A stretch of DNA of 64,000 nt, taken from the NCBI RefSeq assembly GCF_004010195.1, contig NC_057757.1, positions 7,404,942-7,468,941 on the forward strand. The letters are read 5' to 3'. Origin of the DNA: Chiloscyllium plagiosum. Taxonomy: Eukaryota. The translations under genes and the position numbers were made by a program. Within the stretch, counting starts at the first letter, position 1, and every line of letters starts with the position of its first letter. Positions 4,976 through 56,017 of the stretch are shown piece after piece. The notes beneath the pieces are model-generated. The model worked only from the letters and a program-made list of their open reading frames with translations. It had not been told where the DNA came from and did no database searches.

Positions 4976-4977
4976 CA

Positions 4978-17727: not shown

Positions 17728-18638
17728 TCAGCTATTTTGCTTCTTAAGTAACTGAATGATCCAAGTAACCGGATATTTCATTGTGCTTTCGAGCTGCTCT
17801 CTGAACCTAGACTGTGTGACTGCATAAATGAATGTATTTGTGCAGCAACTCATATTCCGCAGCATAAACCCAACTTGTTGAAGTATATATTCAGAATCAT
17901 TGTAATCTCCGGGATAAGTTGCTGTTATAATATAGTATAAGAAATCTATGACATTTACTAACCAAAGAACAATGAAGCTGCCGGATATGGTGAACAGTAA
18001 AATGATAGACTTCCTTCTACTCTCTATCTCTGGGTCTCTTTGATTCTCTGCCTTGCTTTGACCCCTCAGTCCCTTACGGATCCGATTGGTCACTAAAATG
18101 TGTCTGATGGTCAAACAGTTGAATAACAAAATCAAAGCGAATGTGAGAAATGGGGTTAAAATTGTACCAAACCAGTCAAAACCCAGCCACCCAGGGTCTG
18201 TATAATAACTTGACTTTGGGTGACAGTTCCAGGATACATTATTGATTATCCATCCAGGTTGAAGGATAAAGTAGAATGGGACATTTTTTAAACAGAGTAG
18301 GATGTAGATTGTTGCTAGAACCACAGTTGCAGTTTTCCTCGTGCAATATTTTCTTTTCAGCTTTTGGCAACAAATGGCCACAAATCGATCAAAGGAGAAA
18401 GCGATGGTGAACCAGACAGAATAGTCCATTGCTGCTCGACGCATGGCATAAGTGACACTACACACAGCGGTTAGGTCCAGGAATGTTCCCGGGAAATAAT
18501 AGTATTTGATTCTCCGCAGTATTACCTCAGTGATAATGACCAGGAGATCTGCCATTGCCATGGCCACCAGATAGTGAGTAGTGCAGATCGAGAGGCCACA
18601 TGTTCTTCTCGATAGGATCACAATTGCAATCAAATTAA
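17728..18638 (-). CDS. GPR139-like GPCR gene 1, exon 2 (TM1-TM7; spliced protein 325 aa)
   Basis: Polypyrimidine tract plus AG at 18639-18640; uninterrupted frame; motifs AMAMADL, FSFDRFVAICC, ECL2 Cys, CCTNTFIY, helix-8 SRFR. Confidence 0.92.
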
Positions 18639-19387
18639 CTGCAAGGAAGAGTAGAGAAAAGAAGCTGTAAATTAATTAATCTAGCATTCTGTTTAGCCAG
18701 AGAGGGGTTCAACTCCAAAAACAATCATTATTTACAAAGTACAGTGCATGTACCAAAAATGAAAATGTGCAAACCTGATCACAGTCCCAGCTTCACTGAC
18801 AATTATGATTAATAGAGTCAGGGCACAGGGTAATTGGAAACATCTCGCACTGAGGCAGGTTTTCAATTTAAATATCTTAATCAGGTTGCATGTCTCTGAT
18901 TTAACCTTTCTTACATTTTTCACAGTGGGCTGCTGAGTTTTCCATACCTTTATAAAATGTTGGCTGGACGGAGATGAAGTGAGGTCCCCAGAGAAGATAA
19001 GCTACTTCAGAGTATCGTTTGTACTCGAGGAAAATCTCCCCATTCCTAGCCATTCCAACTCTTCCCATGGACTGTCAGACACACTGATACAGGGTACGTC
19101 GATGTTCGGTATGGAACACTCACATATTAGACAACTAGCTTCCCTCACCCTCATAAATGTCTGATAACTTAGAATTGAAAAGTTGCAAAATGGAGATATA
19201 TTTTTTTTGTTGAGATAATTAATTTTAACAATGGGAAGGGAAAAGTAATGACTTTGACCCTCATGGAATGATTGAGCACCTATAGAGTAGCAAGCATTAA
19301 ATAAGCGCACATCGACATCAGTCAGAGTAATACCAAAGCACAGTTCACAGCCCAGTTTAAACAACGTCCACAGATATAGTCACTCAC

Positions 19388-19454
19388 CAGGAACTCCAAT
19401 AACAGCAAGGATCAGGTAATATATTTCAGCAACGCTGGAAAATATTTCACGCAT
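19388..19454 (-). CDS. GPR139-like class A GPCR gene 1, coding exon 1 (MREIFSSVAEIYYLILAVIGVP, start of TM1)
   Basis: ATG at 19454; 22 codons plus 1 nt; donor G|GTGAGT at 19387; phase-1 join to exon 2 gives GVP-V-NL. Confidence 0.9.
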
Positions 19455-19537
19455 TTTCTGTGTGAGGATAAGTGTCTGTTTTGCAGCTGGTACTCTGGCT
19501 GTATTACATCTGAGACGATAGAATTCCCTTCATTCAA

Positions 19538-19618
19538 TTTATACCCTGTGGAAATATCACGGGAATGTTGAGGTTGCAACATTGGTCTAATTGAATTTGC
19601 TTTTTACTTGAGCAAATA
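19538..19618 (-). promoter_or_regulatory. Proximal promoter of GPCR gene 1: TATAAA, O/E(EBF)-like site, homeodomain TAATTG, forkhead-like motif
   Basis: TATAAA on minus at 19538-19543, 84 nt upstream of ATG; TATCACGGGA(AT) 19555-19564; TAATTG 19588-19593; GCAAATA 19612-19618; same layout as gene 2. Confidence 0.55.
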
Positions 19619-20534
19619 GATCGTGCCATCGTGTGAAGTCAATGTTGTTGTTGAACAGGTGCATTTATGAGAATCAGTGATTGGAACCCTCCAAGGGCTG
19701 GAGAGTCGTGAATCATATTAATGCAATAATGACTTGAGCTTGTTCTTTCTGTCACCAACAGTCCCATCCCTCACTCTTATAAGCCCATAGGACCAGAAGT
19801 CACAGAAGTGGAAGTAAGCCCATTTGGTACATCAAGTCCACTCCTCCATTCAACCATTGGTGATAGGCCTTTCAACTCCCCTTACCACACTCTCCCATGT
19901 CTCTTAATTCCTTGCGAGATTAAGAATTTATCAATCTGTTGTTGCATTGACATCCCACACCAGCCTGATAAGGTCGCAAGTATTAGATTAAATGGGGCAT
20001 TTGAAATACGAGTTGGATTCACAGTTGGTGGAGATGAAGATGCAGGATTATGTGTATGTGTGTGTGTGTGTGTATGTTAGGTTTTGGAGGGTGGGTTGTG
20101 GAGAGGAGTGGGAGCCAGCTACATCATGCTTTGCAGCAAATGTCCCAGGCTCCAAAATCACAACCTGTGTAACTTAGAAGATCAACAGTGACAGACACAT
20201 GGGAACAATACCCCTTGCAAGTTCCCCTCCAAGGCACACACCGTCCTGACTTGGAACTATGCTGCTGTTCCTTTACTGTCGCTGAGTGAACATCCAAAAT
20301 TAGCACCACCCATACCCCCTCACATGCCTATCTAACAATGAGATGAATGTAAATAAGGCAGCTCACCACAATCTTTTCAAGATCAATTCAGGATGGACAA
20401 TTGCAGTTCTTGTCACCATTACTTACACCTCCTTTCCCTTCCACACTCTCCCTTGCAGTATCCACCTGTCTATCCCACTCACTCTCTGTCATTTCTACTC
20501 AGCCCTGTCACTCCCACTCAGCCCATGCCTACAC

Positions 20535-22630
20535 CATCCCTACAGGCAATGAGTTCCAGATTCCCAGCACCCTCTGGGTGAAAGCGTTTTTATTCCCACA
20601 TCTCCACTGAATCGGCTGCCCCTTACATTATATCAAAGTACACACCCCCGATCATTGACCTCTCCATCAAGCAGAAAAGTTTCTTCCTGTCCACCCTGTC
20701 TAATTCCCTCATAATTGGAAACATCTCAATCCTGTCACCTCTCAATATGCGCTGATCCAAGGAATCTGATACCTTCAGGGACCGGTGGACATACACACCA
20801 AGGTCCCTTTGTTTCTTGTTGCTTCCCAGGGTCCTACTGTTCATCATGTATTTTCTTGCCTTGCCAAGGGCATCACCTCACGTTTACCTTGACTGAATTT
20901 CATTTGTCGTTGACCAGCTCATTTGACAAGCCTGTGTTGTAGTCTCAGGCAATCTTCCTCTGTATTTAGCAGCTTGCCAACGTCGGTTTCATATTCAAGT
21001 CTGAATCATTTATAGAAAACACAAACAGAAATGGCCCAGACACTGACCCCATTGGACACAGATTTCCAGGCAAAGCAACACCAGAGCTCCATCACTCCCT
21101 GCGTTCTGCCAAGTCTGTGTCCAGTTTGGTAAACTTCCTTGAAACCCTTGAGCTCTTACATTTCCTATCAGTCTCCCATGTGGGATTTTAACAAAGGCCT
21201 TGTTGATTCCAAGTAACCTACATCAAAAGCATTGCCATCATCAATCCATCCAGTCAGCACTTTGAAACATTAAATCAAGTTGGTCAGACATGACCTCCCT
21301 TTAACAAAACTCAACTCACAGTATTGGACTAATCCCTGCCTCTTCAAATGCATATTAACTCTGCCCCTTAGAATTACTTCCAATAGTTTCCCCACCACAA
21401 ACGTTAGACTGACTGGTCTGTCATTTCCTAGTTTATCGCTTGCTCCCTTATTGAACGACAGCAGCGCATTGGCTGTCCTCCAGTCCTCCAGCACCGTTTC
21501 TATGGCCAGAGAGGAATTGAACATTTTTGCAAGTGCCCATGTTATTCTGCCCCTCACCTCTTTCAGCAGCGTGGAGCACATTTCATCAGGCCCTGGAAAT
21601 CTATCTACTTTTAAGCCTGCCAGAGCACTCAGAACCTGCATAGTGGCATGATGGCTCAGTCGTTAGCACTCCTGCTTCACAGCAGCAGGGACCTGGGATC
21701 AATTCCATCCTCGCACGACTGTCTCTGTGGAGTTTTCACATTCTTCTTGTTTCTATGTGCATTCCCACCCACAGACCAAAGATGCACAGGTTTGGGTGGA
21801 TTAGCCATGCTAAATTGTCCCTTGGTATCCAAGGATGCCTAGATGGGGTGAATGAGCCATGGGAAATGCAGGGTTTTATGGTAGGAGGTTGAGTCTGGGT
21901 GGGGATGCTCTTTGGAGAGTGCGTTTGGACATGTTGATTCGATGCAAACTCCACTCTGCTTACACTGATTTCTTCATGTGATTACTCTTGGTGCCAAAAT
22001 AGAAAGGGGGTGTGCCTCTGGGGAGGCTGGGAGTGAGGGCTGTTGGGAGACTGAGGATGAGAGTCTGCATGACTGAGAGTCAGGGTTTAGGGGAGACTGA
22101 AAGTGAAGTTTGTGGGCAGGCTGAGGGTGAGGGGTCTGGGGAGGGTCTGAGTGCTGGCTCTAGGCAGGCTAGGAGTAAGGGGTCTGGGAAGGTGGGTATG
22201 GGTGAGGCAGGGAGTGAGGGCTCTGGGGAGACTGGGAATGAGGGCTGTGTGCAGGCTGAGGGGGAGGGGTCTATGGAGACTGGGAGTAAGAAGTCTGGGC
22301 AGGCTGTGGGTGAGGAGTCCAGGGAAGCTAGGAGTGAGGGCTCTGGGGAATATCACAGACTTTCTCATTAATAATTATATCCGTATCATCCCTCTCACTT
22401 GTGAACGTTGACACAACATATTCATTTTGAACAATACCTATATCCTCTGACTCCAGGCACAAATTACTACCATGGTCTATAACTGGCCTTGTTCCTTCAC
22501 TTGTTATCATTTTACCCTTAATGTCCCTGTAAAACAATTGGGGTTCTCTTTTATTTTTACCTGTGTGCATGCTTTCCTCAGCTCTTCTAATTGAAGATCG
22601 CCCTTGCATATTCTAAACTACTCCAGGGCT
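20535..22630 (-). mobile_element. Fragmented CR1 LINE (paralogue at about 1950-3010), interrupted by a SINE and a minisatellite
   Basis: PGPD, DWRTAN, RPVSLT, GRSCLTNL; continues at 22370-22630. Confidence 0.8.
21980..22350 (-). repeat. Same minisatellite, inverted
   Basis: GGGAGTGAGGG periodicity. Confidence 0.8.
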
Positions 22631-22949
22631 TTTGCTATTTTAAGTTCCAAGTTCTCTAATGGGTGAATGGACATTCACTATTTATGCCCTCTATCTCCCT
22701 CACAATACATTTGCAGTCTCAAACCTAAAAGCCTACACACAAACAGACAGATAATTGCATCTGGATCGAGACGTACACATAAATACACTAAAGAACACAC
22801 TTAATAACACACACAAACACAGACAGTGAGAGATTGGGAGAGATTTGGAGAAATTCTCACTGAGGCACTTGACATTCACAAATCTCGATGAATAAACACA
22901 TTTTCTGCCATTTGTAGGCTGTATTTCTGAAATTATAAAAATGTAACCC

Positions 22950-23267
22950 CCAGCCTTCACAGCTCCCTCACCTCAGATGCTTCACCCATAGTCAACACAA
23001 AACCCTTAATCACAGTCTCCTGAGTGCCCTCACTCCCAGTTTCCCCCATACCAACACTCCCAGCATCCCCAGATCCCTCACCCACAGCCTCCACAGACCT
23101 CTTACTCCCAGTCTCCCCAGACCCCTCCCCCTCAGCCTGCATACAACCCTCATTCCCAGTCTCCCCAGAGCCCTTACTCCCTGCCTCACCCATACCCACC
23201 TCCCCAGACCCCTCACCTCAGCCTCCCCAGAGCCCCACCCACCTTTACTTTGGCACCAAGAGTAATC
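22950..23267 (+). repeat. Same minisatellite
   Basis: Paralogue of 3320-3740. Confidence 0.8.
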
Positions 23268-23594
23268 GATTTGATTCCTGACCCCCTTTTCTGCCCAATC
23301 TACGGATTAGGCGTCAGCTCACACAGACTCCCAGTGCTACATGGTGAGTTTCTAGGTCTCTCCCTGATATATCTCGCTCACCCATCACTGGGTATATTTG
23401 ATCACACTGCAATAGTTGGTGTTCCACACACTGAAATATCTGTCAATTGGGGTCGGGGGTAACGGTTGGTGGTGGGTGAAATGTAATTCCATCCCTTTTT
23501 TCAAGCTGGTGCCTGGTCATGACATTGATGTTGCCTGACTTTTGGTAGTGCGTTTCTAAAAGTTACGACCAGTCTTCAGGCTAGATTCCCCATT

Positions 23595-24411
23595 TGTTAT
23601 AATTCTGGGTGGGAGATTTCAAGCCGTTAAACAACTGTGCGAGATGAAGTGAACTAGCTCCTTTTGATTATAAACCTAATCGTGTCAACGGTTGCAAAAA
23701 GTTTCATTTAAAATTATCCCTTTCTCCCAGACCCAAAATGATCTTAGGATTTAAAGGGCCCTAATTTTACTGGTATTCTTGAATCAACAAAAATATTGTG
23801 GTTATTCATTACTAAACTAGAATGCATAATGCGACATTTCACATATGAGCAGATTAGAAACAAAAAGTAGGATGACAATGCATGACAAAATTTATAATTA
23901 AGAATAAGATGGGTGTGGTCTGAACGTTCTTGAAGGGCAGATAGTTAAATTTCATGAGCTTTGCAATGGAGGTTACCAGTAGACATGACTTTAGTAGGTC
24001 CTGCCGAATTTGAGATTCTTGGTTTATAAGTTGATTCCAATTCTTTCGGCCTGTTCCCTTTCACAAATGGCAGACCAGCATCACTCAGAGTGAGCAAAAG
24101 CCTTTTCCTGTTTTATAACCTGCAGCGCAGGGGTGCTTAAATCACAGTTTTCAAAACTGTGACCTTCACAGTACACATTAGTCTACACACCAGGATCTCA
24201 GGTCAGTAATACGCACAGATGAATGTCACTGCCTGTATTTAACTGCATGTTTTTAAAAAATATTTCAGGAAAACTAAAATGCAAATGTTCATGAAAGATA
24301 GCTTTTGGTGAGAGAGCTATCTCTTCCTGTCACATTTCTGCTCTTGTTTCACGTTTTCCTGGCACTCTGCTGTTGCGACATTCTACTGGCCCCATAAGTG
24401 TGACTTTGTCA
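23595..24411. repeat. Probable solo LTR (truncated paralogue at 4065-4440)
   Basis: Begins TGTTA and ends near TGAC/TGTCA; duplicated; no TSD confirmed. Confidence 0.45.
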
Positions 24412-24515
24412 GATAGTGACTGAATATATGTTTGTTCTCACTTTCTGTTTTTCATTTGACTTCTTTTGAAATGTTAAAATATCTGTAAAAGTAGTTTGTG
24501 TTGGTGACCCATTAC

Positions 24516-27500
24516 CATGACATTGCCCAACGCTGACCAAAGCACAGGTCCCCATTATCTCTCCCAAACACATGACATTCGAGCGTCCAAACATTTCTCA
24601 CTATGACTCAGGTCCTCAGACATGGAAACCCTCAATCAAACATCTGTCATCGCTAAACTGTCCATGCTTTGGACCAGTCCAACAGCTCTTCATTCCGCTA
24701 AAATGAACTCATGAACTAGAAACAAGAATAGAACTCTCAGCACTTCCAGTCTGATTTGCTATTCCATAAGATCATGTTTGATATTAACCTCATCTCTTGT
24801 TCAAGAAGATCACAATCATCCTGATGCCAAAGCAAACTCTTCCAGCATTCTTTAATGTCTACCACCCAGTGGCACTGACCTCCATAATGAGGACGTGCTT
24901 TGTGAGGTTAGTCATGGCCTACATCAACTCGAGCCCCCATCCTGACTTGATCTCTTGCAATTTGCCTACTGTCGCAACAGGTCCACAGCAACGGTGGGCG
25001 GCGCGGTGGCACAGTGGTTAGCACTGCTGCCTCACAGCGCCAGAGATCCGGGTTCAATTCCCACCTCAGGCGGCTAACTGTGTGGAGTTTGCACGTTCTC
25101 CCCGTGTCTGCGTGGGTTTCCTCCGGGTGCTCCGGTTTCCTCCCACAGTCCAAAGATGTGCAGGGTCAGGTAAATTGGCCATGCTAAATTGCCCGTAGTG
25201 TTAGGTAAGGGGTAAATGTATGGGTGGGTGGCGGGGCGGTGTGGACTTGTTGGCCCGAAGGGTCTGTTTCCACACTGTAAGTAATCTAAAAACATCACTT
25301 GTGTCTCATTGTTATTTTATAGAATGGTAACTGTAACAATTGCCACGTTAGATACAAATATGCTGTGGGAGGCAAAGCCCATGTAAAGGCAGCAGATCAT
25401 TATTGGCAGCAATGATCAGATCGAGGTTTCTATATCCAGGTTAAATTTGATGCCATGTGATTTCCAAGTTTCTTTTCCTCCAGAAAGCCCATGCGTCCCA
25501 TCAGGACTGAATACATTTTCTGGGTTATTGTGGCAAATGAAGTGTGGGATTAGAGAGAGAGAGAGAGACAGACAGACATGGTAGACAGACAATTTGGGCG
25601 GTGGCTCAGTGGTTGGCACTGGTGCCTCCCAGCATGGAGGACCACATGGTATATTTAGCTGAGAGATGGGAGGAGACTGGCTGGACCATGATCACTAAAA
25701 TACACTAATTGGGCTGAGGAGCTAGTTTATCTTTGAGCATCCTCTGTAATCCAATGTGATTCCTAAAAATCAAGATGGAAAATGAAGATAATCAGTTGGC
25801 ATCTATGATTCTTTGCTGGTTAGCTTGGCCAAGGTATAAGCAATTGAGAATTAAACTCAAGCAGAAAATAGCTTATTTTAATCTTTAAAGAAAATTGTTG
25901 AAAAAAAATACTTCAATGCTTATTTTACACAGCCATCAGAATGAGGGCAATGCAAATGCGCGAGAAAAATTGCTTCTGTTAAAATGTTGCAACTCATGAA
26001 TTGAAATTTTGATATGATTCTGAGCTCTCAAGTCCTCATTGACTTGGATAACTGCCGCCTGCAAATTTTCTTCTCGTTTACTCCCCATCCTGATGTGGAA
26101 ATCGCCGTTGGATCAGTATCACTGGGTGAAAATCCTGGAACTACCTCCCAAAGGGTTATTTGGTTGTCTCTCCACTACACAGACCTCAGTGGTTCAAGAA
26201 GGCAGTTGATCTCAGGGGTAATTAGGGACGATCAATATAGGGCGGCCAAGTTACCTTTATCATATAAGAAATAAAGTAAACCTGATTCTCCTACACTACC
26301 AGGATTTTCATACCATCTGTTCTTTTCATGAGAAAATTCAGCTCATGGAGATGAAACAATTTCATTGGATGGAGTTTCCTGGCTTGTATCCCATGAGGCA
26401 CCTCTCATGAAATGAAGGTGTATAAGTACAAAATATAAACATGAAAGAGTCACTGATAGTGACAGTAGCAAATTAAAAAAAAGACGAAGGGAAACCTCAG
26501 TACTGACATCAGTAGAAAGGAATAGAAGGATATTAAGACCAGCCTGGACACTGATGAGAGTGATGAAGAGGATTTGACCCACAATGGCACGGAAGGGTAG
26601 AGTGAGTAATCCACCAGGAATTGGAGAAGATTGTCAATCGAGTTAATCAAGAAAACCAGTCTAAGAATAGGCCTCGGCCTCAGAACTCCTGACCATCCAC
26701 CTTCTCCTGAATTTTGGATCTTTGCCTCTTCCACTCACTCTTTGCCTGTCTCCCACTGAATTTTGAAGGTTGCGATTTGGGTGTCTCTAGTTGCATGAAC
26801 CATAGCTTGCAGCTCCAACTCCTCCATAATTTCTGCTGCAATCTCCAGCTTTCATTTTCTTTATCGCTTCATGCCATAGCTACCAGAACGGGATACAAGC
26901 TTTTTTTATTTAGAAAAAAAAAATCCCTTTATGGGGTGAATGCATCACTGACAGAGTCAGCATTTATTTCCCATCCCTAATTGCCCACAGAGCAGTTAAG
27001 AGTCAACTGCACTGCCGTGGGTCTGGAGTCACATGTAGCCTGAGCAGGTAAGGATGGCAGTTTCCTTCACGATAGGACATTATGGAATGTGATGGGCTTT
27101 CCCAGAACTGACAATGATTTCATAATCACCCTTTGACTCCTAATTCCAGATATTTATTGAATTTATAATCCATTATGTGCTCCGGCAGGATTTGAACCCA
27201 GGTTCACAGAACATTAGTTAGGTAGCTGGATTAACTGTCCAGCAATGATACCACTAGGCCATTACCTTCCCTTCCCTTGTGACCCCTTCTGATCTATATC
27301 TGATGTTTTGTAGTTCTTGCTACTTCAATGGTGCTCCCTGACTGGCAGACACCGTAGACATTTCTCACCATGGTCAATTGCAATACTATTCATGATGTTA
27401 AACTGCACTTTAAATTGACTCAGTTTAGTGATTTCTGGCTTGCAGAAATACAAAACAAAAATAGCTACGCTACTAAGGATCAGCTGTCACTTAACAGTCT

Positions 27501-28734: not shown

Positions 28735-28770
<36 letters not shown>

Positions 28771-29332
28771 CAGCTCAGGCGGTACCTCATTCCTGACAGT
28801 CCTCCCTAAATATATTTGTCTGAATCTTCTTTATCTGGCCCGGTCTTCTTCTTTGGTCGTGTGGTAGTGCCCACTGATTTGCCACTTGCCCACATCTGGG
28901 AGATGATAGGTCTGCCTTGACGTCGACGCTGCTGAATCTCTGCAGCACTTCCTCGTTGGTGAAGCTGTCACAGCACAGGAACCACACAGAAAAGAGAAAA
29001 GCATGTGTTAATCTGAGCTGTCACCGTAGGAAAAGTGACATCAAATTTGTTAAAACAAAGTGAAGGACAGTACAGAAAGATGTCGTTGGGAATGATCCCT
29101 CGTAAGTGTCTTTTTTTTTCAGAAGATACCTCAGCGTCAGAGTAAAAGAGTAATGTTTATGTGGAAATGAGCCTTTGTTTTTATGTCTGTGTTCAGAGCT
29201 TTCTAACTGTTTCCAACATGCATGTAGATTTGTTTGATTTTTCTTCTTTCCATAATAAATTTTTGTTCTCTTGCTAAATAATATCTGCAACCTCACACAA
29301 ATGTTTCAGCGACTAACCACCAAATTAACCAA
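24516..29332 (-). pseudogene. Decayed multi-exon protein-coding gene of unknown identity
   Basis: AG/GT-bounded, phase-compatible segments 29297-29332, 28786-28964, 28480-28569, 27895-28057, 27369-27438, 26282-26403; acceptor at 25762; further segment 24516-24697; scattered in-frame stops. Confidence 0.6.
24996..25288 (+). mobile_element. HE1-type SINE
   Basis: Same consensus as 9704-10012. Confidence 0.9.
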
Positions 29333-33222: not shown

Positions 33223-33309
33223 AAGAACGCAGCTTACGAGCACCTTTTCAAAAACAATGAGGGATGAGCAAGAAATGCTGGAGCAACTCACAATGATAAT
33301 TTCCAATTA

Positions 33310-38771: not shown

Positions 38772-39479
38772 ACCATGAATGTAACTGCAAACCAAACCAA
38801 AACCACTGTGGCGGCTGACCCCAGGATGGAAAAAAAGACTACACACAGGAGTAATTGTCACAAACGAATGTGGTAAATACATTGGAACAGCGATCCACAA
38901 TATGACATCAAATACAACAACAAGGGGATCAGCCACTGCTATTCCAATCAAGTAATGAGTTACACACTTGGAGAGAACGCACTTTTGGCGGGACAGGATC
39001 ATAATTGCCACCAAATTAACTGTGAGGGAAGGGCGTGAAATAGAAGGTAATATTTACAGATCAAGTCCAGTTTCAAAGAACAATGTGACAGAACCTAGGC
39101 CCAATTTGCAGGTTTACTGTTTCATGACAGGTGTAAATTGAATAATTAAGTGCTATCCTACAAATATATGTATGAAACACAGTTTACAACAGCATATTTT
39201 GGAATCCAAAGAACAAATGAATAAAATATGCCAACAAGGCTTATAGGTCATCATCAATGGTAAAATTAGTTCGCTACAAGAGTGAATGAGCAGATCTAAT
39301 AGCAACATTTAAATTCTAGGAGAGGTTGTTATTGAATCTATATAGTGGTAAATAATAAACATTAAGCAACGTAATTCGCACCATCAGGAATACTTAAAAT
39401 ATGAATTGCCAGGAACATTAATGGCAGAAAAAAGAGGAAAATAAATATCTTCTACCAGCCATACAACTGGATTTGCTAT
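38772..39479 (-). pseudogene. GPR139-like GPCR pseudogene, closest to gene 2 (exon 1 39410-39479; exon 2 remnant 38772-39019)
   Basis: ATA in place of ATG; GC in place of GT donor; +1 frameshift in a T7 run near 38830; truncated in TM3 by a Penelope element; intron aligns with the gene 2 intron. Confidence 0.9.
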
Positions 39480-44320: not shown

Positions 44321-44584
44321 AGCCTGAAAAACATTAATCACTTGCCTCATTCTGTAACCCTGTTTCTTTGCAGACATTTAGTTCAGGCTAAAATCTGCAG
44401 TTTGAAATATACAAGGAACCGTTAAGAAGATTACTGAAGTTTTATGAAACTCGTGGAATTTGTTTACAATCAGCCTTGTCCTGAAAGCTGTTTCAGGCCT
44501 TTTGCCACAGTCCTGATCTATAATTCCAAAGTTGGCCATTTTTTCCCATCATGCAATGTTAAATGAAACCCACAATACCCCACA
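44321..44584 (-). repeat. ERV 3' LTR (truncated; U3 part only)
   Basis: Follows polypurine tract AAAAGGGGG (44588-44596); begins TGTGGGGTATTG; direct repeat of the 5' LTR. Confidence 0.85.
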
Positions 44585-44599
44585 TGTCCCCCTTTTGTC

Positions 44600-45840
44600 T
44601 ATTATGACAATCACTTATGTAGGCACATTGAAAATCCGATTGAAAATGCATTGGCACAAGCAAACAAGTAACACTATTCCTACTAGCATTAGTACCATGA
44701 CCGAAAAAGACTTTAAAGAAACTATCAAACAATCCGTGACCCAACCAACTCAGTGGGCTATAATCATAGAATTCCCTGCCAAGGTCTTGTATGTGGTCAG
44801 CATGTTGCTTAATATGTTCAGCTCGGTTGGTGATATTTTCAGAGGTATCTGGAATATAGGTACAGCACTCCTGACCCACAACAGCACATGCTCCCCCTTG
44901 CGAGGCTGGCAGATAATCCAAAGCCAGTCAATTCTGAAATGCCACTGTCCAAACAGCCACCAGCTCAGCTGAGACCGCAGTGCTTGTCCAGTTGCCTTGG
45001 TTTCCAAAGTTGTCTCATTGGCCAGGTGTTCCAGTGTTGAGGCTGTGTGAACCAATTCGCCGGATGCCCGGCCTATTCTTTGCAACAGAAAGCACAACAA
45101 GAGGGACTGGTCTCGCAGTTCGTGGATAGTAGTGCTTAAGGGAGTTCAGGTGATGCATATAGGGTACAACATAACCTGGACAGAGGATCCTATCCAACTG
45201 GTAGGAAGCCATGTGTACGCTTTGTTGCTGCATATAAGGTATGTGCCATTGTAAGCTGTAAAGTCATCAGCAAAAGGCATCCAAGGCTGTGTGGTGGAAT
45301 GGGCCCATGGACTATCAGATGTAATATTCCAGATCCAGGTCCAATCACAATTAAACATCCCATTTCTTGAAATATTGACTACTGGACCTTGCCAGTCAAA
45401 TGTGAGAGAATATTTGCTTTGCCCCAAGAGCATTCCTTTTCTAAAGCATTGCGATCCTGTGGCATTATTCAAATGGTCTGTAAGGGAAGGAGGAACTGAG
45501 TTGTGATTATATGTGGGCTGATACCATGTCGAAAATGTAGTCATTTCATTACCTGCCGATTTCCATAACCTCAATTCCCCATTAGACCCTGTGTGATTTT
45601 GTCGTAACATCCACTCAACTGTTTATGATATAGGAAGGGGTTGAAGAGGTATTTCTTCCATTGAATGGATGGGGATATGGATACAAACCCAACACCTACT
45701 TATATTTAATTTCTCAGCATACATACATGACATACGTAAATAGATGTTTACATGCAGTTCCTGAAGAGGCTGGTTTGTTAATATCAAATGTTCACTGTTC
45801 AAAAAGTCCAAAGAGTACCAAAATGATGTTCATGCTGTGT
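44600..45840 (-). pseudogene. env: ERV env remnant (gamma-type)
   Basis: CWVC motif in SU; RTAR cleavage-like site; ISD-like VAFQN*LALDYL; CX6CC (CAVVGQECC); stops and frameshifts. Confidence 0.85.
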
Positions 45841-46870
45841 CATCGACCGGTTGAGGAGAAATATGATTCCAATCAGATAGATGGACCCAATTGCAAAGTC
45901 CTTCAATTTTGACTGAGGTTGGGTGTTGCTAGTAGCACTTGAAAGGGGCCACTCCAGTGGTGTCCTAATTAGTTTCTTTCCCAATTCTTGACCAACACAT
46001 AATCCCCTGGGTTTACTCGTGGATACTGGGATGCGATCATGTTTTCTTCATCTGGCAATGCGATTGGTGGACCTGCAACTGAAGAAACTTCAGAGAAAGT
46101 GTTAATTGCTTTAAGTAATTCTGCAATTGCTCACCCATTACGTGGAGATCTATGGCCTTTAGGGTTTCAGTATGAACATCCCACAGAGTCCTCATTGGCA
46201 GACCATAAACTATGTCTGCAGTTGATCGTCCGGTCCGTCAATGTGGAGTCACTAGCATGTGAAAAAGTGCTAAGGGAAAAGCTTTGAGCCAATTTAACCT
46301 CTTTTCTTTGACTAATTTAGATGAGTTTTCTTTTAAGGCACTGTTAGCCCGTTCCACAGTCCCCGCTGTCTGCGGAAGATGCACGCTGCTGTTTAATTGA
46401 AAGCGTTTCAGTAATTCAGCATTGATTGTGGCCCATTGTCTGAGCTTATCATTTGATGTAACCCAAAGCAGGGAATAACTTCAGTTAGCAATATTTTTCA
46501 CTACTGTATGTGCAGAACAATTAGTGGGGAAGTCTTCAATCCATTTCCTAAATACATCGACCATCACTAAACAGTATTTATAACATTTGTACCAGGTAAT
46601 TCAATAACATTAAGATGTATACAAGCAAAAGGACCATCTCGCGGGGGGTAGTCGTGGAAGGCCAGTTAATACCTTTGCCTTACCTATGCAAATAGGGCAT
46701 CGATCTCGCCACATTTGAGCTGCTGTATTCAAATCTGGGTGCCATGAGGCTTTAAAAAAATGCTGTACCGATCCTTCCTTGCCATGTTGGGTACAATTGT
46801 GCGAGTAATCAATACGCACTGGTAACAAAGAATCAGGAATACAAACCCGACCCACCGGTGTTAGCCAGAC

Positions 46871-46947
46871 TCGGAGATGCCGGTGTTGGACTGGGCTTCC
46901 ATTTAAACCTGTTGGGACTATAACCTGGTGTTGTGTGATTTTTAACT
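46871..46947 (+). mobile_element. 77-bp Penelope-end insertion in ERV pol
   Basis: TSD GTGTTAGCCAGAC at 46858-46870 and 46948-46960; matches 865-907. Confidence 0.8.
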
Positions 46948-47780
46948 GTGTTAGCCAGACGTCTCGTGTCGAGGAATGCGAACATCCCATCCACCTCCAA
47001 AGTGCACATTCAGATTCAGAGGTGCTTCTCTGTAAAGTTTAAATTGCAGTTAGATCTTCCATGTCCTTTGTCCCTGAAGTAGCTACTTGATTTCGAGCCT
47101 GATTCCTGTTAGTTGCACCAACTAAAATGGCTGATGCAGCAGTCTCCTTAGCAGCCGAATCAGCATGGGCATTTACTCATTGTACCGGAGTGACAACTTT
47201 CGCGTGCGCAGTACATTGAATAACAGCCAATTGATGAGGAAGGCGAATAGCATTGAGGAGATTTTCAACCGAAAGAGCATCTTGAATGGGAGTCCCCGTA
47301 GAATCAAGGAAGTCTTGCGGCTGCCAGAGGCAACCAAACTCATGGACAACACCGAATCAGTATAAATGTTAGCAATTTTATCAACGAAGTGAATGCAAGC
47401 TCTAATGAGGGCAAAAACATTGGCTTTCTATGCAGATACAGGGGTCTGAAAAGCAGCAGACTCTTGAACAGCAGTGTCTGCTGCTATAACATAGCCTGGC
47501 TGCTGGACACCGTCCAGGGAAACAGAGGACATTCCCAAAAATACGAAGCATGAGTTCGAGATTTTCCAATGGGAAGACTGCCAAATCCAGGCAAGGTACA
47601 GTAAGTAAGTGAATCCTAAGCAACCAGTCATGGGGTGGGAATCAGGAAGATCGTCAGGAGGTTGCTCAAGGAATGTAGCAGGATTCAAATTGGAGCAGGA
47701 GCGAAACGATGGGTAAGGCTTCTGCAACAGTGGGATCTCAGGACTAGCTTAGCTGACGTGTTGGGTCTGCTGAGACCATG

Positions 47781-48114
47781 AAACCATAAGACATAGGAGT
47801 GGAAATAAGGCCATTCGGCCCATCGGGTCCATTCCACCATTCAATCATGGCTGATGGGCGTTTCAACACCACTTACCCGCACTCTCCCTGTTGCCCTTAA
47901 TTCCCTGCAAGATCAAGAATTTATCAATCTGTGCCTTGACGACATTTAACGTCCCGGCCTCCACTGCCCCCGTGGCAATGAATTCCACAGGCCCACCACT
48001 CTCTGGCTGAAGAAATGTCTCCTCATTTCCGTTCTAAGTTTGCCCCTTCTAATGGGTCCTAGTTTCCCCACCGAACGGAAACAAATTCCCAACATCCACC
48101 CTTTCTAAGCCATG
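47781..48114 (-). mobile_element. CR1 3' fragment inserted in ERV pol
   Basis: CR1 3' UTR; CCATG at both junctions. Confidence 0.75.
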
Positions 48115-49083
48115 CTTCGACGTGAGGAAGGTGACAACGGAGTGCGAGATGTACACCAGTACGGGCTGGTGAATGGTCAGATTAGAGGCTGCCTGTTACT
48201 AACAAGTGGGCAACGTTTCGGAGTTGAATGCGGGGAGGGAGACCACAGGCAACAGGATCCAATTGAGTGGAATAATAGGCTACTGGGCGATGACGGTCAC
48301 CGTGCTGGTCACTTAGGACACCAGTGGCTCGTTCATCTGGTACATTAACATAAAACTGAAAGGATCGGTCAAATAGCGGGCGGCCTTTGAGGGCATTAAC
48401 TGACTGCATGGCCGAGTCAGACAACTGAAATTTAAGGGGAGCCTTCGGAGAGGAATAAGGAGTTCGGAAGCCACTGCCTGCAAATTTGTCCAGCCCCAAA
48501 ATGGCTCTCATCCTTTTGGGTGAGTTGGGGCAAGATTTGTAAGATGGGGCAATCCACTCCTGAGTAAGGGAACGGTCAGTAGGACTAATTAACACACCCA
48601 AAGATTTAAGCTGTGATTGACCTTTATGAACCTTAGTGGTTGGGATCACATATTCTCACGAATGGAGATGTGTGATGAGGTAAACAGTGTTCTGCCGGTC
48701 ATTAACCAAATCAGGGCTAGCAAGAAGTATCTTTCTCAGCCCTAGCATCTTTACAGCGTTTTTGCCTGAATCACTATTCACCTTTCATCTACTCCTCCAC
48801 AGTCAGCCTTTAACTTCTCCCAGCTCCTGCACATCTGTCTGTCCATTCTCAAGTACATTATTCCTCCAACTGGCCAAAAAGGCATTTCTCTCTTCACTGT
48901 CTGCTTTTTTTTTGTCATTCTTTAATTAATAATTTCTACTTTTTCCTGTAGGTTCTGTCTTAAATTAGGCTCACTGCCTGCTCACAAACGGCTACATCAC
49001 AGGCCCCCCTACCATCCTGACCTGCACAGAGGATACAGAACACTCATTTCATACAGAGTTGCAACTTGCTTACAATAGCAATC

Positions 49084-49213
49084 GATTCCTGAAGAAGGGC
49101 TAATGCCCGAAACGTCGATTCTCCTGTTCCCTAGATGCTGCCTGACCTGCTGCGCTTTTCCAGCAACACATTTCCATCTCTGATCTCCAGCATCTGCAGA
49201 CCTCACTTTCTCC
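49084..49213 (+). mobile_element. Short Penelope terminal-repeat insertion with intact hammerhead core
   Basis: CTGAAGA-AGGGC TAAT GCCC-GAAA-CGTC; TSD TACAATAGCAATC at 49071-49083 and 49214-49226. Confidence 0.85.
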
Positions 49214-50354
49214 TACAATAGCAATCACAAGGGCAAGGGCTCCCATATTTCTTTCAACAACCGAATATCACGCAACGTCACAGTTATCAGTGTCTTCAGA
49301 TTTCTAAACTACATTTGCAAAATTTCAATCTTCACCAATTCCACGCAAAATCGTATAATCTGGAATTAAAGCTTAGACATTAAATCAGTATTTAGAAATT
49401 TACTCTGGCTGGAAAATGAAACTGCAAACATGATAATTTCAAGTCCCAAGAAAAAGTTTAACTAAGCTTTAAGACACAACCTTTTTCAATCAACCTCTCC
49501 TGGCAAATATACACTTAAATTAGTACAGCAAGTCCCTGAAAAGGAACTAACGTTAACCATACAGAATCTAAACTAAAAAAAAGCACAAACAGCAGTTTAA
49601 AATCACCATGGATTCCCAACATGCAGACCCAAAATCAAAGCATTCCCAGATCTCGAGTTCTTGGGGATAAAGAAAACAAAGATAACAGAAGAGCACATGT
49701 AACCACCAATAAACAAAGATACTTCCATCACGGAACACAGAGGTAACAGCCAGATCAGTGAGCGCAAAAACTAGCAGCCTGTTGCTTTCTCTCTCTATCT
49801 CCCTTTCTACTCGAAGTTTTTTTCTGTAATTTTTGCCAATTGTTAAATGGGATTGCAATTCTAAGTGCTATCAGGTGAAAATAACTCGCCAGTTTCCTGT
49901 GCTCATGTCACCCGTTTGCTGTTAAATTCACAGTTTTGGAATCAATTCCCTATTCTTTGGGAAGTTTCCACCACATGCACCATCGCAATTAATCAAAAAA
50001 TTCACACTGGACGTACGTTAATTCGTATATGACAATTTACCAAGTTGTCCATTTGACACAAAGAATTTACAAAAACGTTCCCTCTCTCAGAGAGGCCAGT
50101 AACCCTGTAAACATTTTCCTGATCAGGTACTTTCTCGGAGTTCCACCTTCCTAACTACATTGTCCCATTGCACGTCATCATTCCTTCCTCTGCTATGTAC
50201 AAATTTCCACCAGCAATACCAATACTACGGAGTGAGAAAGTCATGGACCCTGCCCTGTTTTAACTACTGGAGCAATATAGTATAGCCAGCATCACACTGC
50301 AGCAATCTAGAGCAATCTTGCGTGTGACTAGCCTTTGTAGTTGGCCAGGGCTAG

Positions 50355-50837
50355 TCAGAAAAGGTTAGAGAATGTTAAGGACGTCTGATTGCAGTAAGAA
50401 TCCCGGCCCTGCCTGCAAGGCAATGGACAAGCCCTGGTGTAGTGTTCCACCTTTCTACGGTTAAAGCATGCGTTACGAGATGGGGATCCTGGTGATGAAA
50501 CACAAGGGGTCAGTGGGAAATTATTCGTACCTTATAGGACAGACAGTGGACCACGACTAAACCCAGTTTTCGGGGTTTAAAGGGTTTGTCATACCTGAAT
50601 GGCCTGGTAAGTTTGGTTCTCAGCAGCAGGTCAGGGATTGATGAGTGGATAATTGGCAGGGAGTGGCTGCTCATCTGCAGGCTGAAGAGAAATATTATGA
50701 ATAGAGCTATTTGGCAGGGAGGTGGAGGGCTGTTGTTCCGATGAGGGGTCAATGCGAGATCTGGGGTGTTGTGTCAGAAGCTGTGTGGCAGCTGAAGCAA
50801 AAATAGAAGGTCAGGTCGGGGCTGGGGGAGGGGGACT
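50355..50837 (-). pseudogene. gag: ERV gag C-terminal remnant
   Basis: Degenerate CCHC knuckle CFNRRKVEHYTRAC at 50427-50468; in-frame TGA at 50355-50357. Confidence 0.7.
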
Positions 50838-51627
50838 GTTGAAACTTTATTGCTGGAACAGCACAGCAGGTCAGGCAGCATCCAGGGAACAGGAGATTCG
50901 ACGTTTCGGGCACAGGCCCTTCTTCAGGAATGAGCAGAGAGTGTTCAGCAGGAGAAGATAAAAGGTAGGGAGGAGGGACTTGGAGGAGGGGCGGGGGAAA
51001 TGTGATAGGTGGAAAGAGGCCCCACCTACGTTCGTGACACCACCCACGCCCTCCACCTCCTCCAAGGCTTCTGTTTCCCCGGCCTCCAACGCTTCATCTT
51101 CACCATGGATATCCAATCCTTCCATCCGCCATGACCAGGGCCTCCAAGCCCTCTGTTTATTCCTCTCCAGGTGTCCCCAACAGTACCCTTCCACTGACAC
51201 TCTCATTCGTTTGGCCGAACTGGTCCTCACCCTTAACAATTTCTCCTTCGAATCCTGGTTGAAACTTTATTGCTGGAACAGCACAGCAGGTCAGGCAGCA
51301 TCCAGGGAACAGGAGATTCGACGTTTCGGGCACAGGCCCTTCTTCAGGAATGAGCAGAGAGTGTTCAGCAGGAGAAGATAAAAGGTAGGGAGGAGGGACT
51401 TGGAGGAGGGGCGTTGGAAACTCCGACCTATCACCCTCACCTTGACCTCTTTCCACCTATCACATTTCCAACGCCCCTCCTCCAAGTCCCTCCTCCCTAC
51501 CTTTTATCTTCTCCTGCTGAACACTCTCTGCCCATTCCTGAAGAAGGGCCTGTGCCCGAAACGTCGAATCTCCTGTTCCCTGGATGCTGCCTGACCTGCT
51601 GTGCTGTTCCAGCAATAAAGTTTCAAC
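50838..51627. mobile_element. Young rearranged Penelope insertion: two direct terminal repeats, RT fragment, one inverted repeat
   Basis: Repeats start at 50838 and 51258; inverted copy 51465-51627; RT fragment LIRLAELVLTLNNFSF. Confidence 0.85.
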
Positions 51628-52261
51628 TTTGATACATGAATAGGCAAGGAATAGAGGGATACGGACAGCGCAGAGGCAAAAGGTTTTTAGTTTACAAAGG
51701 TGTCATGCATCAGCACAGGCTATGTGGGCCAAAGGGCCTGTTTCTGTGGTGTGCTTTGAATTATCAGGTATAAGATGGAATGTAGGTTTGAGGTTAAAAT
51801 CAGACCAGCCATGATTTGATTGAACAGGGGATCAGACTGGAATGGCAGAGTGACTCCACGGTTCCTTGTTTGTCTGTTTATAAAGAATGACAGCCCATTT
51901 ATATTGATCAGTAAGAGAATACTGACAGGATTTAACTGGTTAATAATCACACAAAATATAATGGGTGAGGTTAGAAAAAAAAATTGACACAAGGGATTGT
52001 TTAGAATTCCTACAGTGTGGAAGAAGGCCATTCAACCCATCAAGTCAACACTGACCCTCTGAAGAGCATCCCACACCATCCCTATAACCCTGCATTTTCC
52101 ACGGCCAATCCACCGAGCCTGCACATCTTTAGACTGTGAGGGGAAACCCATGTAGACACAGGGAGAACACGGAAACTCCACGCAGTCACCCGAGAGTGGG
52201 ATTGAACTCGGGTGTTACGACATGGTTAATTTAAAACCAGCAACACAAAAAACATTTATCC

Positions 52262-52400
52262 TGTGCAGTATGTCCATGGTGAAGATGAGGCGTTGGGGAC
52301 CGGGGAAGCGGAAATCCTGGAGGAGGTGGAGGGCGTGGGTGGTGTCACGAACGTAGGTGGGGAGTTCTTGGACTAATGGGGACAGGACCGTGTCGAGGTG
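52262..52400 (-). mobile_element. Penelope RT fragment
   Basis: Reverse complement resembles 51020-51110. Confidence 0.7.
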
Positions 52401-52920
52401 TTAAAGCTTCCTCATCATCTGTCTCACTGGAGTCAGGACAAATTAGCATACCAGATGATCTTGGGGGGAAACCACTCCCCTTGCCCCACCTGCCTTTTCA
52501 CTTTTAACTGCAGCCACTTTGTCTGAGTTCTGGTGTTTGAAATCCCATAGTGCACCCTCAAATTCCAAAGTCTCCCAATCTTTCATTTTACCATTTGAGT
52601 ACTCTTCAAAATCCCACTTTCATGGATTACCTCGCAAACTCATCAACTGTGAGTTCTCGTGGCGCCTAGTGGATTCCTGCATCCAATGTCAAAAGGTAGA
52701 CTTTCATTTAGCATGCTCTTATCAAATGAGCCGCCTTTCCAGAATATTTGTAATTTTCTCAATCCCAGGTGCACCAGACTGGCCAAACGTCTTGCCCCAA
52801 TTTATGGCACAATGCTATCGACAGATGACATAAGTTCCGTTCTCAGGTCTTCCTATACCCTAGCACATAGAGCTCTGTTATTGCTGGTACCAAGAACAAT
52901 CAGAGATATGGACCCAAATT
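52400..52920 (-). pseudogene. Probable ERV gag N-terminal (matrix) remnant
   Basis: Position after LTR and leader; protein-like frame with stops; weak motif support. Confidence 0.4.
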
Positions 52921-53252
52921 GAAAAGTAAAAGTCTCTCTGATTTCTTAATAAAAAAACCTCAGAAATCTTAAATAAAAAAATCCCAGTGCAGACTTCAAA
53001 GTCAAACAACAACTTGCTCCCTGCTTCACTCCGCATAATCACAGTCCACTGGAAAAAGTTTGGAATTTAGATTCCGAAACCGTCATCTTTTGGTGTCCTC
53101 TGCAACGGACGAGGAGTCACAGCAGCCGGCCATGAGAGAGAGAGAGAGAGAGACAAACCAAAACTTAAAAATAGCTCACCTTGTGGTGCCGTCCATCTCT
53201 TTACCTCAAAGCATCAACTGCAGGATATCTGGTTTTCGCTCTCAGCACCACA

Positions 53253-53803
53253 TGTCAAGTTGAATTTTAATTAGCAGTAATCCGTGAGAGCTGAAATCAC
53301 AAACTTGACAAAAAAAAATACAACAGCATGATCTGAAAACAATCAGACTTTATTGATAAGAGTACTGCAGCAGTTTGGCAAAAACTTGTAGAGGACGGAG
53401 ATACCAGTAGTTCTCAATTTCTTTTACAGGTATCACACCTTTCCAAAGAAAGAACTATATCATGTACTTTAAAATATGCTAAGGAATTTCAAATTACCAT
53501 AAAAGGTATATCACGCATAGCACTGATACTTAGCCTGAAAAACATTAATCATTTGCATCATTCCATAGCTCTGTTTCTACTGTATAGACGTTTTGTTCAA
53601 GCTACAATCTGCAATATATACAAGGAGCCGTTAAGAAGGTCACTGAAGTTTTATCAAACTTGTGGAATTTGTTTACATTCAGCCTGGTCCTGAAAGCTGT
53701 TTCTGGCCTTTTGTCGCAGTCCTGTTTAACTTGCTGATCTATCATTCGAGAGTTGGCCATTTTTTCCCATCAAGCAATGTTAAATGTTCCCCACAATACC
53801 ACA
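53253..53803 (-). repeat. ERV 5' LTR
   Basis: Starts TGTGGTATTG; 53532-53803 aligns with 44321-44584; AATAAA at 53349-53354; proposed CA end at 53253, then TGG-starting PBS-like sequence (53233-53250) and donor AAG|GTGAG near 53180. Confidence 0.75.
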
Positions 53804-54626
53804 TTACAAGGGTGCGCCCTAATATTAAAACAGTTTCCCCCTCTCCACCGCCCCACCCCCATTCTGCACTGACTCACAACAGGAAACATCCATTCCATGT
53901 GCATCCTGTCAACACTGTTTAGGATGTTAACATGTGTTGAGTGATTTGAGGAATGTTATCTATGCTCAGACAGCATCAGAAAGCAATGTGAGGGAACGAT
54001 GTTCTATTCAGCAGAGTCAGAATGGCAGTTTTGGGTTTCTCATCTTAAGAACAGGAGCTGAAGTTGGCCATGTGTGCTCTCCGAGAGGCGGAGCCACTGA
54101 TCAGGATCAGAGCTGATATTCTAACTCTGTGCCTCTAGTCTGCCCCACTTCTAATAGAACACTGCTCTGAAATTAAATCTTGATCTCACAGTAATCCAGT
54201 TTGGCTTTAAAACCCACAGGTAAATGCAGGAAAACAAGGAAATAATTCCCATTTCAGGCAGCATTGATGGGGAAAGAAACAGTCAACTTTTCAGACTGGT
54301 ACTCAGTTATCAGCATTTCATTGCGTATATTCAGATCATCACCTTATCTCTGACGGAATTGCCAGGCCCCACTCCCATTTGTGTCACACCTGAGATTGGC
54401 AGCTTCCTCCTTTTTGTTCTGTGGCCTTAAGTGGGATCTCTCTCAGCTTTTCACGTGCGCACTTTTGTTTTTGGAGATCAAAGCTCATGGATTGTCCACA
54501 CAGCAGACCTTGCAGTAAATCGATTCTTTTTTTTCGGACAGACGCAATCAGACGGAAGAATGTGCGATGCTGTGAACTTACTACTTTCCTCTGGGGGATT
54601 GGAGGGAAAGGAATGTGAAGAAGAAA

Positions 54627-55555
54627 TCAGTTCCCGGGTTTCAAGCCCTTCAACCTGTTCCATGACTTAGCGATTCGCTTGAAAGGGTATATCATGGCAT
54701 TCTTCAGCTGTTCCCTGAATTTAGCCTGAATCACAGCGTAAATGCATGTGTTGGTGCAGGAGCTGAGCAGTTGCAGCATCTTTGATGTGCGATCTGTGAT
54801 GAAGCAAGGATCTGTAAAGGAAGAGTAATCTCGGATATCAGTAATACGTGCGTAAATGTTGTAAACAACCTGGGTCACCCACAACAGCACAAAACTGCCT
54901 GATATACTGAAGAGCAAAACAATGGACTTCCATCGGTTTTCCATCTCTGCATCCTTGTGCTTCTCTCCATTTGTTTGACCACGGAGACCCCTACGGATTC
55001 GACTACTCACTAAAATACGCCTGACAGTCAGCACATTGAACAGCAAGATCAGAAAGAATGGCACACAAGGGGTTAAAATGTAGTTGATCATTTCAAACGC
55101 AGCCCACGCAGGAGAATTGAAGAAACTCGGCTTACGGGCACAGCCCCACGGAATATTGTCAATGATGTATCGTGGTTCATAGATAAAGAACCAGGGTACA
55201 GACTCCAGGGAGCCCAGCATGGTCACAGTCCCGAGAAATGCTGCTGCAGTTCTCTCGTTGCAAAATCTTGTTTTCACCTTCTCACAGCAAATGGCAATAA
55301 ATCGGTCAGCGGTGAACGTGACTGTGAGCCAGACAGAAACCACTGTGGCTGCTGATCCCAGAGCAACAACAAGACTACACACAGGAGTAATGTTCACGTA
55401 GGAACGTGGTAAATAAATTGGAATAGTGATCCTCAATATGGCATCAAAGACAACGACAAAGTGATCGGCCACTGCCATTCCAACCAAGTAATACGTTACA
55501 CACTTAGAGAGACCACACCTTCCTCGGGATAGGATCACAATTGCGACAAGGTTAA
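54627..55555 (-). CDS. GPR139-like GPCR gene 2, exon 2 (spliced protein 332 aa)
   Basis: AG acceptor at 55556-55557; open frame; motifs GMAVAD, TADRFIAICC, SCTNTCIY, AKFR; clear paralogue of gene 1. Confidence 0.92.
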
Positions 55556-55947
55556 CTGTGAAGGAAGAGAGTGAGATAGGAGCAAATATTTACACACCCT
55601 GCATAAAAGAACAATGTGACAGAACCTATGGCAAAAGTTCCAACTTTGTTGTTGCTTGATGAGTGTAAACTGAAATGTTGAATGCTTTCCTACAGATGTG
55701 TGCTTGAAACACAATTATCAATATTTTGGGGGGAATCCATAACAAAAGTGAATAAAGTAACCATGGGAGATTTATAGGTTATCATTAATGGTAAAATGAA
55801 TTACCTACAAGAGTAAAGGAGCATATACAATGGTGGCATTTGACTCCAAGAAAAGGTGGTTGATAAAATACACAGTGAGAAATAATGATCATTAAGCAAC
55901 ACGGTTCACACAGAAATGCATCAGGAACACTTGAGATAACAGCTTAC

Positions 55948-56017
55948 CTGGAACACCAATGGCTGAAATGAGAGGAAAGTAAACGTCTTCTATTTTCCAT
56001 ACAACTGGGTATGTCAT
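55948..56017 (-). CDS. GPR139-like GPCR gene 2, coding exon 1 (MTYPVVWKIEDVYFPLISAIGVP)
   Basis: ATG at 56017; 23 codons plus 1 nt; donor G|GTAAG at 55947. Confidence 0.9.

Follow-up and report, generated by a model that had tools for sequence, protein, structure and literature searches.

The window, by which is meant the whole 64,000-nucleotide stretch of Chiloscyllium plagiosum DNA that was analysed (contig NC_057757.1, positions 7,404,942 to 7,468,941; G000:C48:7.40-7.47 Mb of a 3.56-Gb genome), carries three minus-strand copies of a single gene type, a G-protein-coupled receptor (GPCR), as found by six-frame translation and tblastn. The expansion to which these copies belong is real, very large and under selection. 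Counted by its motifs, it is an elasmobranch family of roughly a thousand genes, the motif count suggesting well over a thousand copies when broken ones are included. The family looks like chemoreceptors in every genomic respect examined, membership of that functional class depending on expression and ligands. Its genes are likely to be chemical sensors, numerous and so far unstudied, of animals credited with a few dozen smell receptors, and there is about an even chance that the family forms a chemosensory repertoire whose receptors would each respond to a different external ligand, likely peptides.

The size of the family was approached in several ways. Protein searches of the genome gave at least 130 matches at 57% identity or more to one intact window gene, G1, and at least 128 at 45% or more to the other, G3, which is far from few copies. 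A motif of the third transmembrane helix (TM3) occurs 1,700 times in the genome, against 2 for its control, and a TM7 motif 638 times, against 3. When 40 places were sampled from the first 100 listed for the TM3 motif (contigs C2-C8 only), all 40 were family members and 19 had an open exon 2, from which about 800 open copies (95% interval 536-1,086) are extrapolated for the genome. Since only 10 of the 22 open loci in four clusters carry the TM3 motif, this figure is likelier to be low than high; many of the matches, however, come from small contigs without a chromosomal placement, and haplotype duplicates may be among them, which weighs against a higher count. The four clusters (664 kb contiguous, chosen for holding matches) comprise 40 loci, of which 22 are open, and a phase-1 exon 1 was located within 9 kb for 20 of the 22. 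About half of the loci checked are broken (18/40 in the clusters and 21/40 in the sample), and the clustered birth-and-death expansion proposed in the original prediction is borne out. Copy number was not derived from the read depth of 144,075 seen in a DNA run, since that value adds up several contigs. Among 109 scored candidates from the same genome, three matched olfactory receptors (ORs).

In the databases, 1,380 proteins are related to the family at E<=1e-10. The named ones among the top 120 are all from sharks and rays, with no chimaera member among the named matches listed; the closest proteins to the window genes are from carpet sharks, and subfamilies are common to sharks and rays. 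RefSeq labels for the family are mostly the automatic 'probable G-protein coupled receptor 139', others being 'GPR15-like', 'capa receptor-like' and 'vasopressin V2 receptor-like'.

The receptor features of the window are the following:

19388..19454, minus strand: G1 exon 1, 22 codons and 1 nt, encoding the short N-terminus and the first half of TM1; ATG at 19454, GT donor at 19387.
17728..18638, minus strand: G1 exon 2, the rest of the seven-transmembrane receptor in an open frame, with TGA at 17728-17730; Pfam 7tm_1 at 77 bits; ratio of nonsynonymous to synonymous substitution (dN/dS) 0.22 to the nearest paralogue.
19537..19564, minus strand: G1 proximal promoter, an O/E(EBF)-like 10-mer at 19555-19564, separated by 11 nt from the TATA box that follows it at 19537-19543.
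17494..17499, minus strand: G1 candidate poly(A) signal, from sequence only.
55948..56017, minus strand: G3 exon 1, 23 codons and 1 nt.
54627..55555, minus strand: G3 exon 2, open frame; Pfam 7tm_1 at 64 bits; 79% to a whale shark RefSeq model.
56103..56130, minus strand: G3 proximal promoter, an O/E(EBF)-like 10-mer at 56121-56130, separated by 11 nt from the TATA box that follows it at 56103-56109.
39410..39479, minus strand: pseudogene exon 1 remnant, with ATA in place of ATG and a GC donor; 76% to G3 exon 1.
38777..39019, minus strand: pseudogene exon 2 remnant (start 39019, to about 38777), TM1 to TM3 with a frameshift near 38825; 82% to G3.

G1 and G3 are intact two-exon genes in which a GT-AG phase-1 intron interrupts TM1 and separates a short exon 1 from a long, open exon 2; their Pfam scores (cut-off 30.5) place both among class A (rhodopsin-type) GPCRs; a borderline Pfam Srx match was also seen in G1. 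The introns measure 749 nt in G1 and 392 nt in G3, the products 325 amino acids (computed from coordinates) and 332 amino acids after splicing. The two proteins share 47.7% identity over 302 amino acids (dN 0.40, dS 1.9), and the anticipated pair of intact, diverged paralogues with one pseudogene is thus present. The middle copy is a 5' fragment only, with its frameshift in TM3, and tblastn gave no remainder of this copy within the window; it is a duplicate from the G3 lineage, 82% alike in exon 2 and 72% in the intron. Of the intron described for all three copies, G1 and G3 have the GT-AG form, and the pseudogene has its GC donor and reads NVP for GVP. As an observation on the surroundings, a unit made up of a G1-like intact gene and an adjoining G3-like pseudogene is present three times at G000:C48:7.36-7.46 Mb, which points to segmental tandem duplication.

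Regarding ancestry, the genes had been called GPR139-like, and this proved right as to kinship and wrong as to identity. With G3 alone, human GPR139 scored 26 bits against 29 bits for PRLHR, while a profile of the family placed GPR139 first among solved structures (66.4 bits versus 51 bits for the next). GPR139 and GPR142 are class A orphans activated by L-Trp and L-Phe, and they resemble the family in the phase-1 intron before N1.50, in N5.58 and in the lack of W4.50 and P7.50; as GPR139 too lacks P7.50, this loss is not peculiar to the window genes. Unlike the family, each was found once in the genome (GPR142 on C24; the true GPR139 at G000:C21:58.73 Mb, scoring 479 bits to the human protein versus 26 bits for G3), with about 22% identity and a separate clade. 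They also lack C3.25, which the family keeps, whereas the family is without P6.50 and mostly without R6.51, E3.32 and N7.39. One copy each was found of two further shark paralogues, type A (L035, G000:C26:36.6 Mb) and type B (L036, G000:C98156), and shark GPR139, GPR142, type A and type B all have a splice acceptor at the family's phase and place, the intron comparison for these four resting on acceptors.

Further relatives were sought by comparing a profile with 1.84 billion representatives and looking up the names of the matches; the next ones were an amphibian gene, genes of coelacanth, teleosts, bichir and amphioxus, and peptide-type receptors of invertebrates. The amphibian gene, designated type C, is shared by frogs, salamanders and a caecilian and has one relative in a sturgeon, each species contributing a single protein cluster (P0336, P0404-P0423), no amniote or teleost match appearing among those listed. 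In it, S1.50 and N2.50 replace the usual N and D. A careful tree of 33 sequences recovered the family (97/91), its union with the amphibian and sturgeon type C (100/99) and the further union with types A and B (92/93), GPR139/142 standing apart. A quick tree of 70 sequences agrees and leaves the ORs outside the family; a single GPR139 sequence entered the trees, and the three invertebrate branches are long. In an approximately unbiased (AU) test, a forced grouping of the family with GPR139/142 was rejected (p=0.005). Orthology to GPR139 is ruled out by the separate GPR139 gene, the tree and the AU test, and on these sequence grounds the RefSeq GPR139 label is wrong at the orthology level.

Type C (P0336) is placed by the tree as sister to the family, inside a clade with types A and B, and differs from it in occurring once per species and in keeping P6.50-K6.51, F3.33 and N7.39 unchanged. 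From these comparisons, the family has expanded from a gene that frogs and salamanders appear to keep in single copy. That the expansion is lineage-specific stands insofar as no one-to-one orthology with a known receptor was found, but a lineage restricted to sharks and rays is contradicted by the amphibian and sturgeon co-orthologue. Rinne et al. 2019 placed the GPR210 orphans near GPR139/142, and the word 'shark' is absent from the available text of that survey (PMC6504862). Types A, B and C likely correspond to these orphans, the agreement being in taxon pattern and tree position only.

Membership of the established chemosensory families was also considered and rejected. For ORs, no 7tm_4 match was obtained and three shark ORs group apart in the tree; for V1R/ORA, there was no V1R Pfam match at E<=0.001, the trees being built without V1R/ORA. 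Aminergic receptors carry D3.32, and TAAR membership finds no footing in the window genes, where position 3.32 is occupied by R (G1) or G (G3), with no amine receptor among 23 profile matches (trees without TAAR). The family resembles OR, TAAR, V1R/ORA and V2R repertoires in size, clustering, turnover, short N-terminus, variable pocket and O/E-like promoter site, and differs from them in its ancestry and in the intron inside TM1; it is known here from sequence. A precedent is offered by nematode srw, a birth-and-death expansion from the FMRFamide/myosuppressin-receptor branch for which environmental-peptide sensing has been speculated (PMC2576165). The srw receptors (PF10324) and the family arose by birth and death from the same peptide-receptor branch, and a PF10324 scan of the genome gave 13 matches, including seven family loci and GPR142. 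The shark expansion is independent of that of srw, and G1 and G3 have no PF10324 match at E<=0.001, srw ligands themselves being only speculated.

The residues of the receptors combine a fixed core with a variable ligand-facing side. DRF for DRY, NTxxY for NPxxY, the missing TM6 proline and the very short N-terminus (23-24 residues ahead of N1.50) are all present in G1 and G3, as had been described. In 52 open copies from the genome, D2.50, D3.49, R3.50, N5.58, F6.44, N7.49 and Y7.53 are invariant. The 28 pocket positions have a mean entropy of 2.13 bits and the outer loops one of 2.1-2.7, against 1.19 for the remaining helix positions. Between G1 and G3, the extracellular loops (ECLs) had been expected to diverge most, and so do ECL1 (2/13 identical) and ECL3 (3/14), the helices being about half identical, but ECL2 (12/28) shows no unusual divergence. 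P6.50 followed by R, K or H at 6.51 is found in GPR139, GPR142, type B, type C and amphioxus; in the family, P6.50 persists in 3/52 copies from this genome, where the six commonest residues at 6.51 are all non-basic, and R or K at 6.51 is retained in 29/94 database members from other species. The Trp/Phe site of GPR139 comprises E3.32, F3.33, H5.42, W6.48, R6.51 and N7.39 (PMC7318219). Of these six residues, G1 and G3 each retain W6.48 only, and because the site is lost, the suggestion that the family senses amino acids in the GPR139 manner is unsupported.

An AlphaFold model of the G3 orthologue P0001 (mean predicted local distance difference test score, pLDDT, 87) shows seven helices and helix 8; TM1 begins at residue 5, and ECL2 forms a hairpin. 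Compared by Foldseek, the model lies nearest to receptors for peptides and chemokines with no clear winner, and GPR139 is not among the top 50, Foldseek not discriminating between peptide receptors. The predicted hairpin and these top structural matches would fit peptide ligands. The short N-terminus is not universal: in the sister group of the C8 subfamily, exon 1 runs to about 60 codons. Two variants were observed besides: a branch (G000:C48:7350069-7350944, P0271, P0286) with an N-terminus of 60-90 residues that contains short repeated motifs and an N-glycosylation sequon, and several members of the C9 cluster without C3.25 and the ECL2 cysteine, P6.50 being present in 3/9.

Selection was evaluated by codon comparisons. 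Over 16 independent close pairs, dN/dS was 0.44 overall, 0.29 in the helices, 0.41 in the pocket, the residues for which such a comparison had been proposed, and 0.96 in the outer loops. Purifying selection thus acts on the signalling core, and pocket and loops are variable. Values of 0.27-0.43 were obtained in six subfamily sets. The M8/M8a test for positive selection was run with our own implementation on fixed trees, its one-ratio likelihood matching that of IQ-TREE. In the C8 set, twice the log-likelihood difference (2dlnL) was 222 with a gap-filtered MAFFT alignment, with 8% of sites at an omega of about 6. The 16 selected sites include 11 of the 37 loop sites, the other five lying at helix tops, and pocket sites account for 3/28. 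The signal holds with separate trees for three segments, these segment trees being the only gene-conversion control. The wide G3 set was weak (2dlnL 17, omega 1.5), and positive selection is not significant in the 38 sequences that remain once C8 is taken out.

Promoters gave a second kind of evidence. A TATA-like box, mostly 68-108 nt ahead of the ATG, is present in 12 of 20 promoters versus 5.3 in shuffled sequence. Beside it, a 10-mer resembling the O/E(EBF) consensus was first noticed and then tested on newly fetched genes, where 20 regions yielded 11 with an exon 1 and 10 usable promoters; at one mismatch or fewer, it occurs in 16/18 promoters of the discovery set (flank rate 0.22) and in 7/10 of the held-out ones (flank rate 0.20, p about 0.001), and exact matches occur in 3/10 held-out promoters versus 0.02. 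G1 and G3 share the O/E-to-TATA spacing of 11 nt despite a dS of 1.9. In favour of a chemosensory use, OR expression in mouse is governed by Lhx2 and Ebf sites (PMC5608512). As to expression, some members of the family are probably transcribed, the reads coming from a single-cell library of unstated tissue and none matching G1 closely. The main read pile is strand-biased (18.7 versus 1.5) and traces to a C9 cluster with 38 near-identical copies, its direction depending on the library chemistry; C8-type reads are also present. The young cluster at G000:C9:86.03-86.45 Mb (L124-L137) is the source of most reads in run X5. No RNA run was listed for G3.

Taken as a chemosensory system, the family combines a large, clustered birth-and-death repertoire with a constrained core and variable ligand-facing sites. 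One GPR210-type orphan would have given rise to the elasmobranch expansion, and a promoter with TATA box and O/E-like site may direct expression to EBF-positive sensory neurons of the nose or another chemosensory epithelium, probably with one or few genes per cell. The ligand would enter between the ECL2 hairpin and ECL3, and the switches D2.50, DRF, F6.44/W6.48 and NxxxY would pass the signal to a G protein, which by analogy only could be Go or Gq. More specifically, sharks and rays may hold a further, independently evolved olfactory family of at least 800 genes, with a neuropeptide-receptor ancestor and O/E-type promoters, a proposal to which we give slightly less than even chances.

Several results weigh against the chemosensory proposal. 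EBF acts in B cells and in many other neurons and is not specific to smell. The promoter counts come from paralogues that are not independent, with flanks as control and no unrelated shark promoters. A homeodomain site appeared in 3/10 held-out promoters and a homeodomain site followed by O/E in 0/10, hence no replication, and a composite Lhx2-Ebf promoter was rejected on the same 0/10. In the C8 subfamily, the 8.8 kb searched for exon 1 did not yield one for any of five copies. Of the 12.96 million reads in the single-cell library, 99 could be placed on G1 at 80% likeness but not one at 95% or above; a second run of the same sample gave 0 reads on G1. Moreover, catshark olfactory neurons are Go/TRPC2-positive and have been attributed to V2Rs (PMC10116579), the presumed V2R co-receptor labelling 5.9 neurons per mm, termed a moderate frequency in that paper. 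Positive selection was significant in only two of seven subfamily sets and not in C9, C17, narrow G3, wide G1 (which holds G1) and C44, and where it is strong it sits on loops, which fits pathogen-driven evolution as well.

This last point leads to the main rival, immune or barrier sensing, which we regard as possible but doubtful. According to it, leukocytes or cells of skin, gill or gut would detect microbial or damage-derived peptides and the loops would race pathogens, the model being the formyl-peptide and Mas-related receptors of mammals. The location of the C8 sites on the outer surface and not in the deep pocket is what it would predict, EBF is well known as a B-cell factor, and the stranded C9 pile came from a single-cell library, although the tissue of that library is unstated. 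Against it, five of the seven sets lack positive selection, and neither ETS nor octamer motifs are enriched in 20 promoters (2 versus 2.2 and 1 versus 0.3 expected). In favour of the immune alternative is also a report that one conserved gene of the OR clade is specific to immune cells (PMC13113109).

The possibility that the numbers reflect mostly genomic drift is unlikely. Segmental duplication on fast-evolving chromosomes would then have produced weakly expressed, redundant copies whose number has no sensory meaning, as the broken half of the loci, the repeated G1-like and G3-like units next to the window, the dispersed C8 copies with flanks about 85% alike over kilobases and the lack of G1 reads would allow; nevertheless, the low dN/dS of the six subfamily sets, the subfamilies common to sharks and rays, a promoter element kept across clades at a dS near 2 and site-specific positive selection speak against it. 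Most improbable is endogenous or reproductive peptide signalling, with self peptides or seminal and oviducal cues acting in brain, gonad or sperm as for MIP, sex-peptide and FMRFamide receptors: the GPR139/142 branch shares its origin with these receptors (PMC8514136) and the Atlas neighbours do likewise, catshark v2r genes are expressed in testis too (PMC11979771), and reproductive proteins often show positive selection at their surface, but endogenous peptides have receptors whose copy number stays stable, in contrast to expansions of the srw type (PMC2576165), and the genome still contains A, B, GPR139 and GPR142 as conserved single paralogues.

Literature searches found no description of the expansion, of which subscription journals and supplements could hold a mention; papers pairing 'GPR139' and 'shark' included none on the family, judged by their listings, and term look-ups in the available text of shark genome papers gave no mention of it (PMC10620051, PMC11979771, PMC8455134, PMC7677710). 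Cartilaginous fishes have a mean of 43.8 olfactory receptor genes, reported as the smallest vertebrate olfactory repertoire (PMC10869828) despite their large noses, and this view of a small repertoire now becomes directly testable. If the olfactory proposal were true, the family would amount to about twenty times the known repertoire and would overturn the picture of a shark nose of a few dozen V2Rs. Whatever its function, a selected family of such size contradicts the 'relative paucity' of GPCRs in cartilaginous fishes (PMC8455134). Furthermore, the amphibian sister gene has kept the ancestral pocket as it was; through it the ancestral ligand could be approached, and a receptor that stayed fixed can be compared with one that diversified.

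Some observations concern the genomic setting. The C8 subfamily (L088-L120, L210-L213) is scattered in both orientations along a 108-Mb contig, over 40 Mb or more from its start, its copies having kilobases of shared flank at about 85%. At G000:C48:7332532-7333341, 70 kb from the window, a C2H2 zinc-finger array lies inside the receptor cluster, and L012 (G000:C9:94.39 Mb) is a somatostatin-receptor-like frame that stays open over 599 codons although a long tandem repeat is inserted in its ECL2. Within the window, Pfam gave no match for 13 of the 14 other open reading frames. Two repeat pairs of about 90% identity, 9.2 kb apart (44407-44582 and 53616-53803), enclose broken minus-strand frames that are env- or pol-like by eye, as fragments without a Pfam match; the element at 44407-53803, between the pseudogene and G3, is probably a decayed long-terminal-repeat retroelement. 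A reverse transcriptase fragment (RVT_1) at 4753-5619 is presumably CR1-like, and remnants resembling long interspersed (LINE), Penelope and short interspersed (SINE) elements occur elsewhere across the window.

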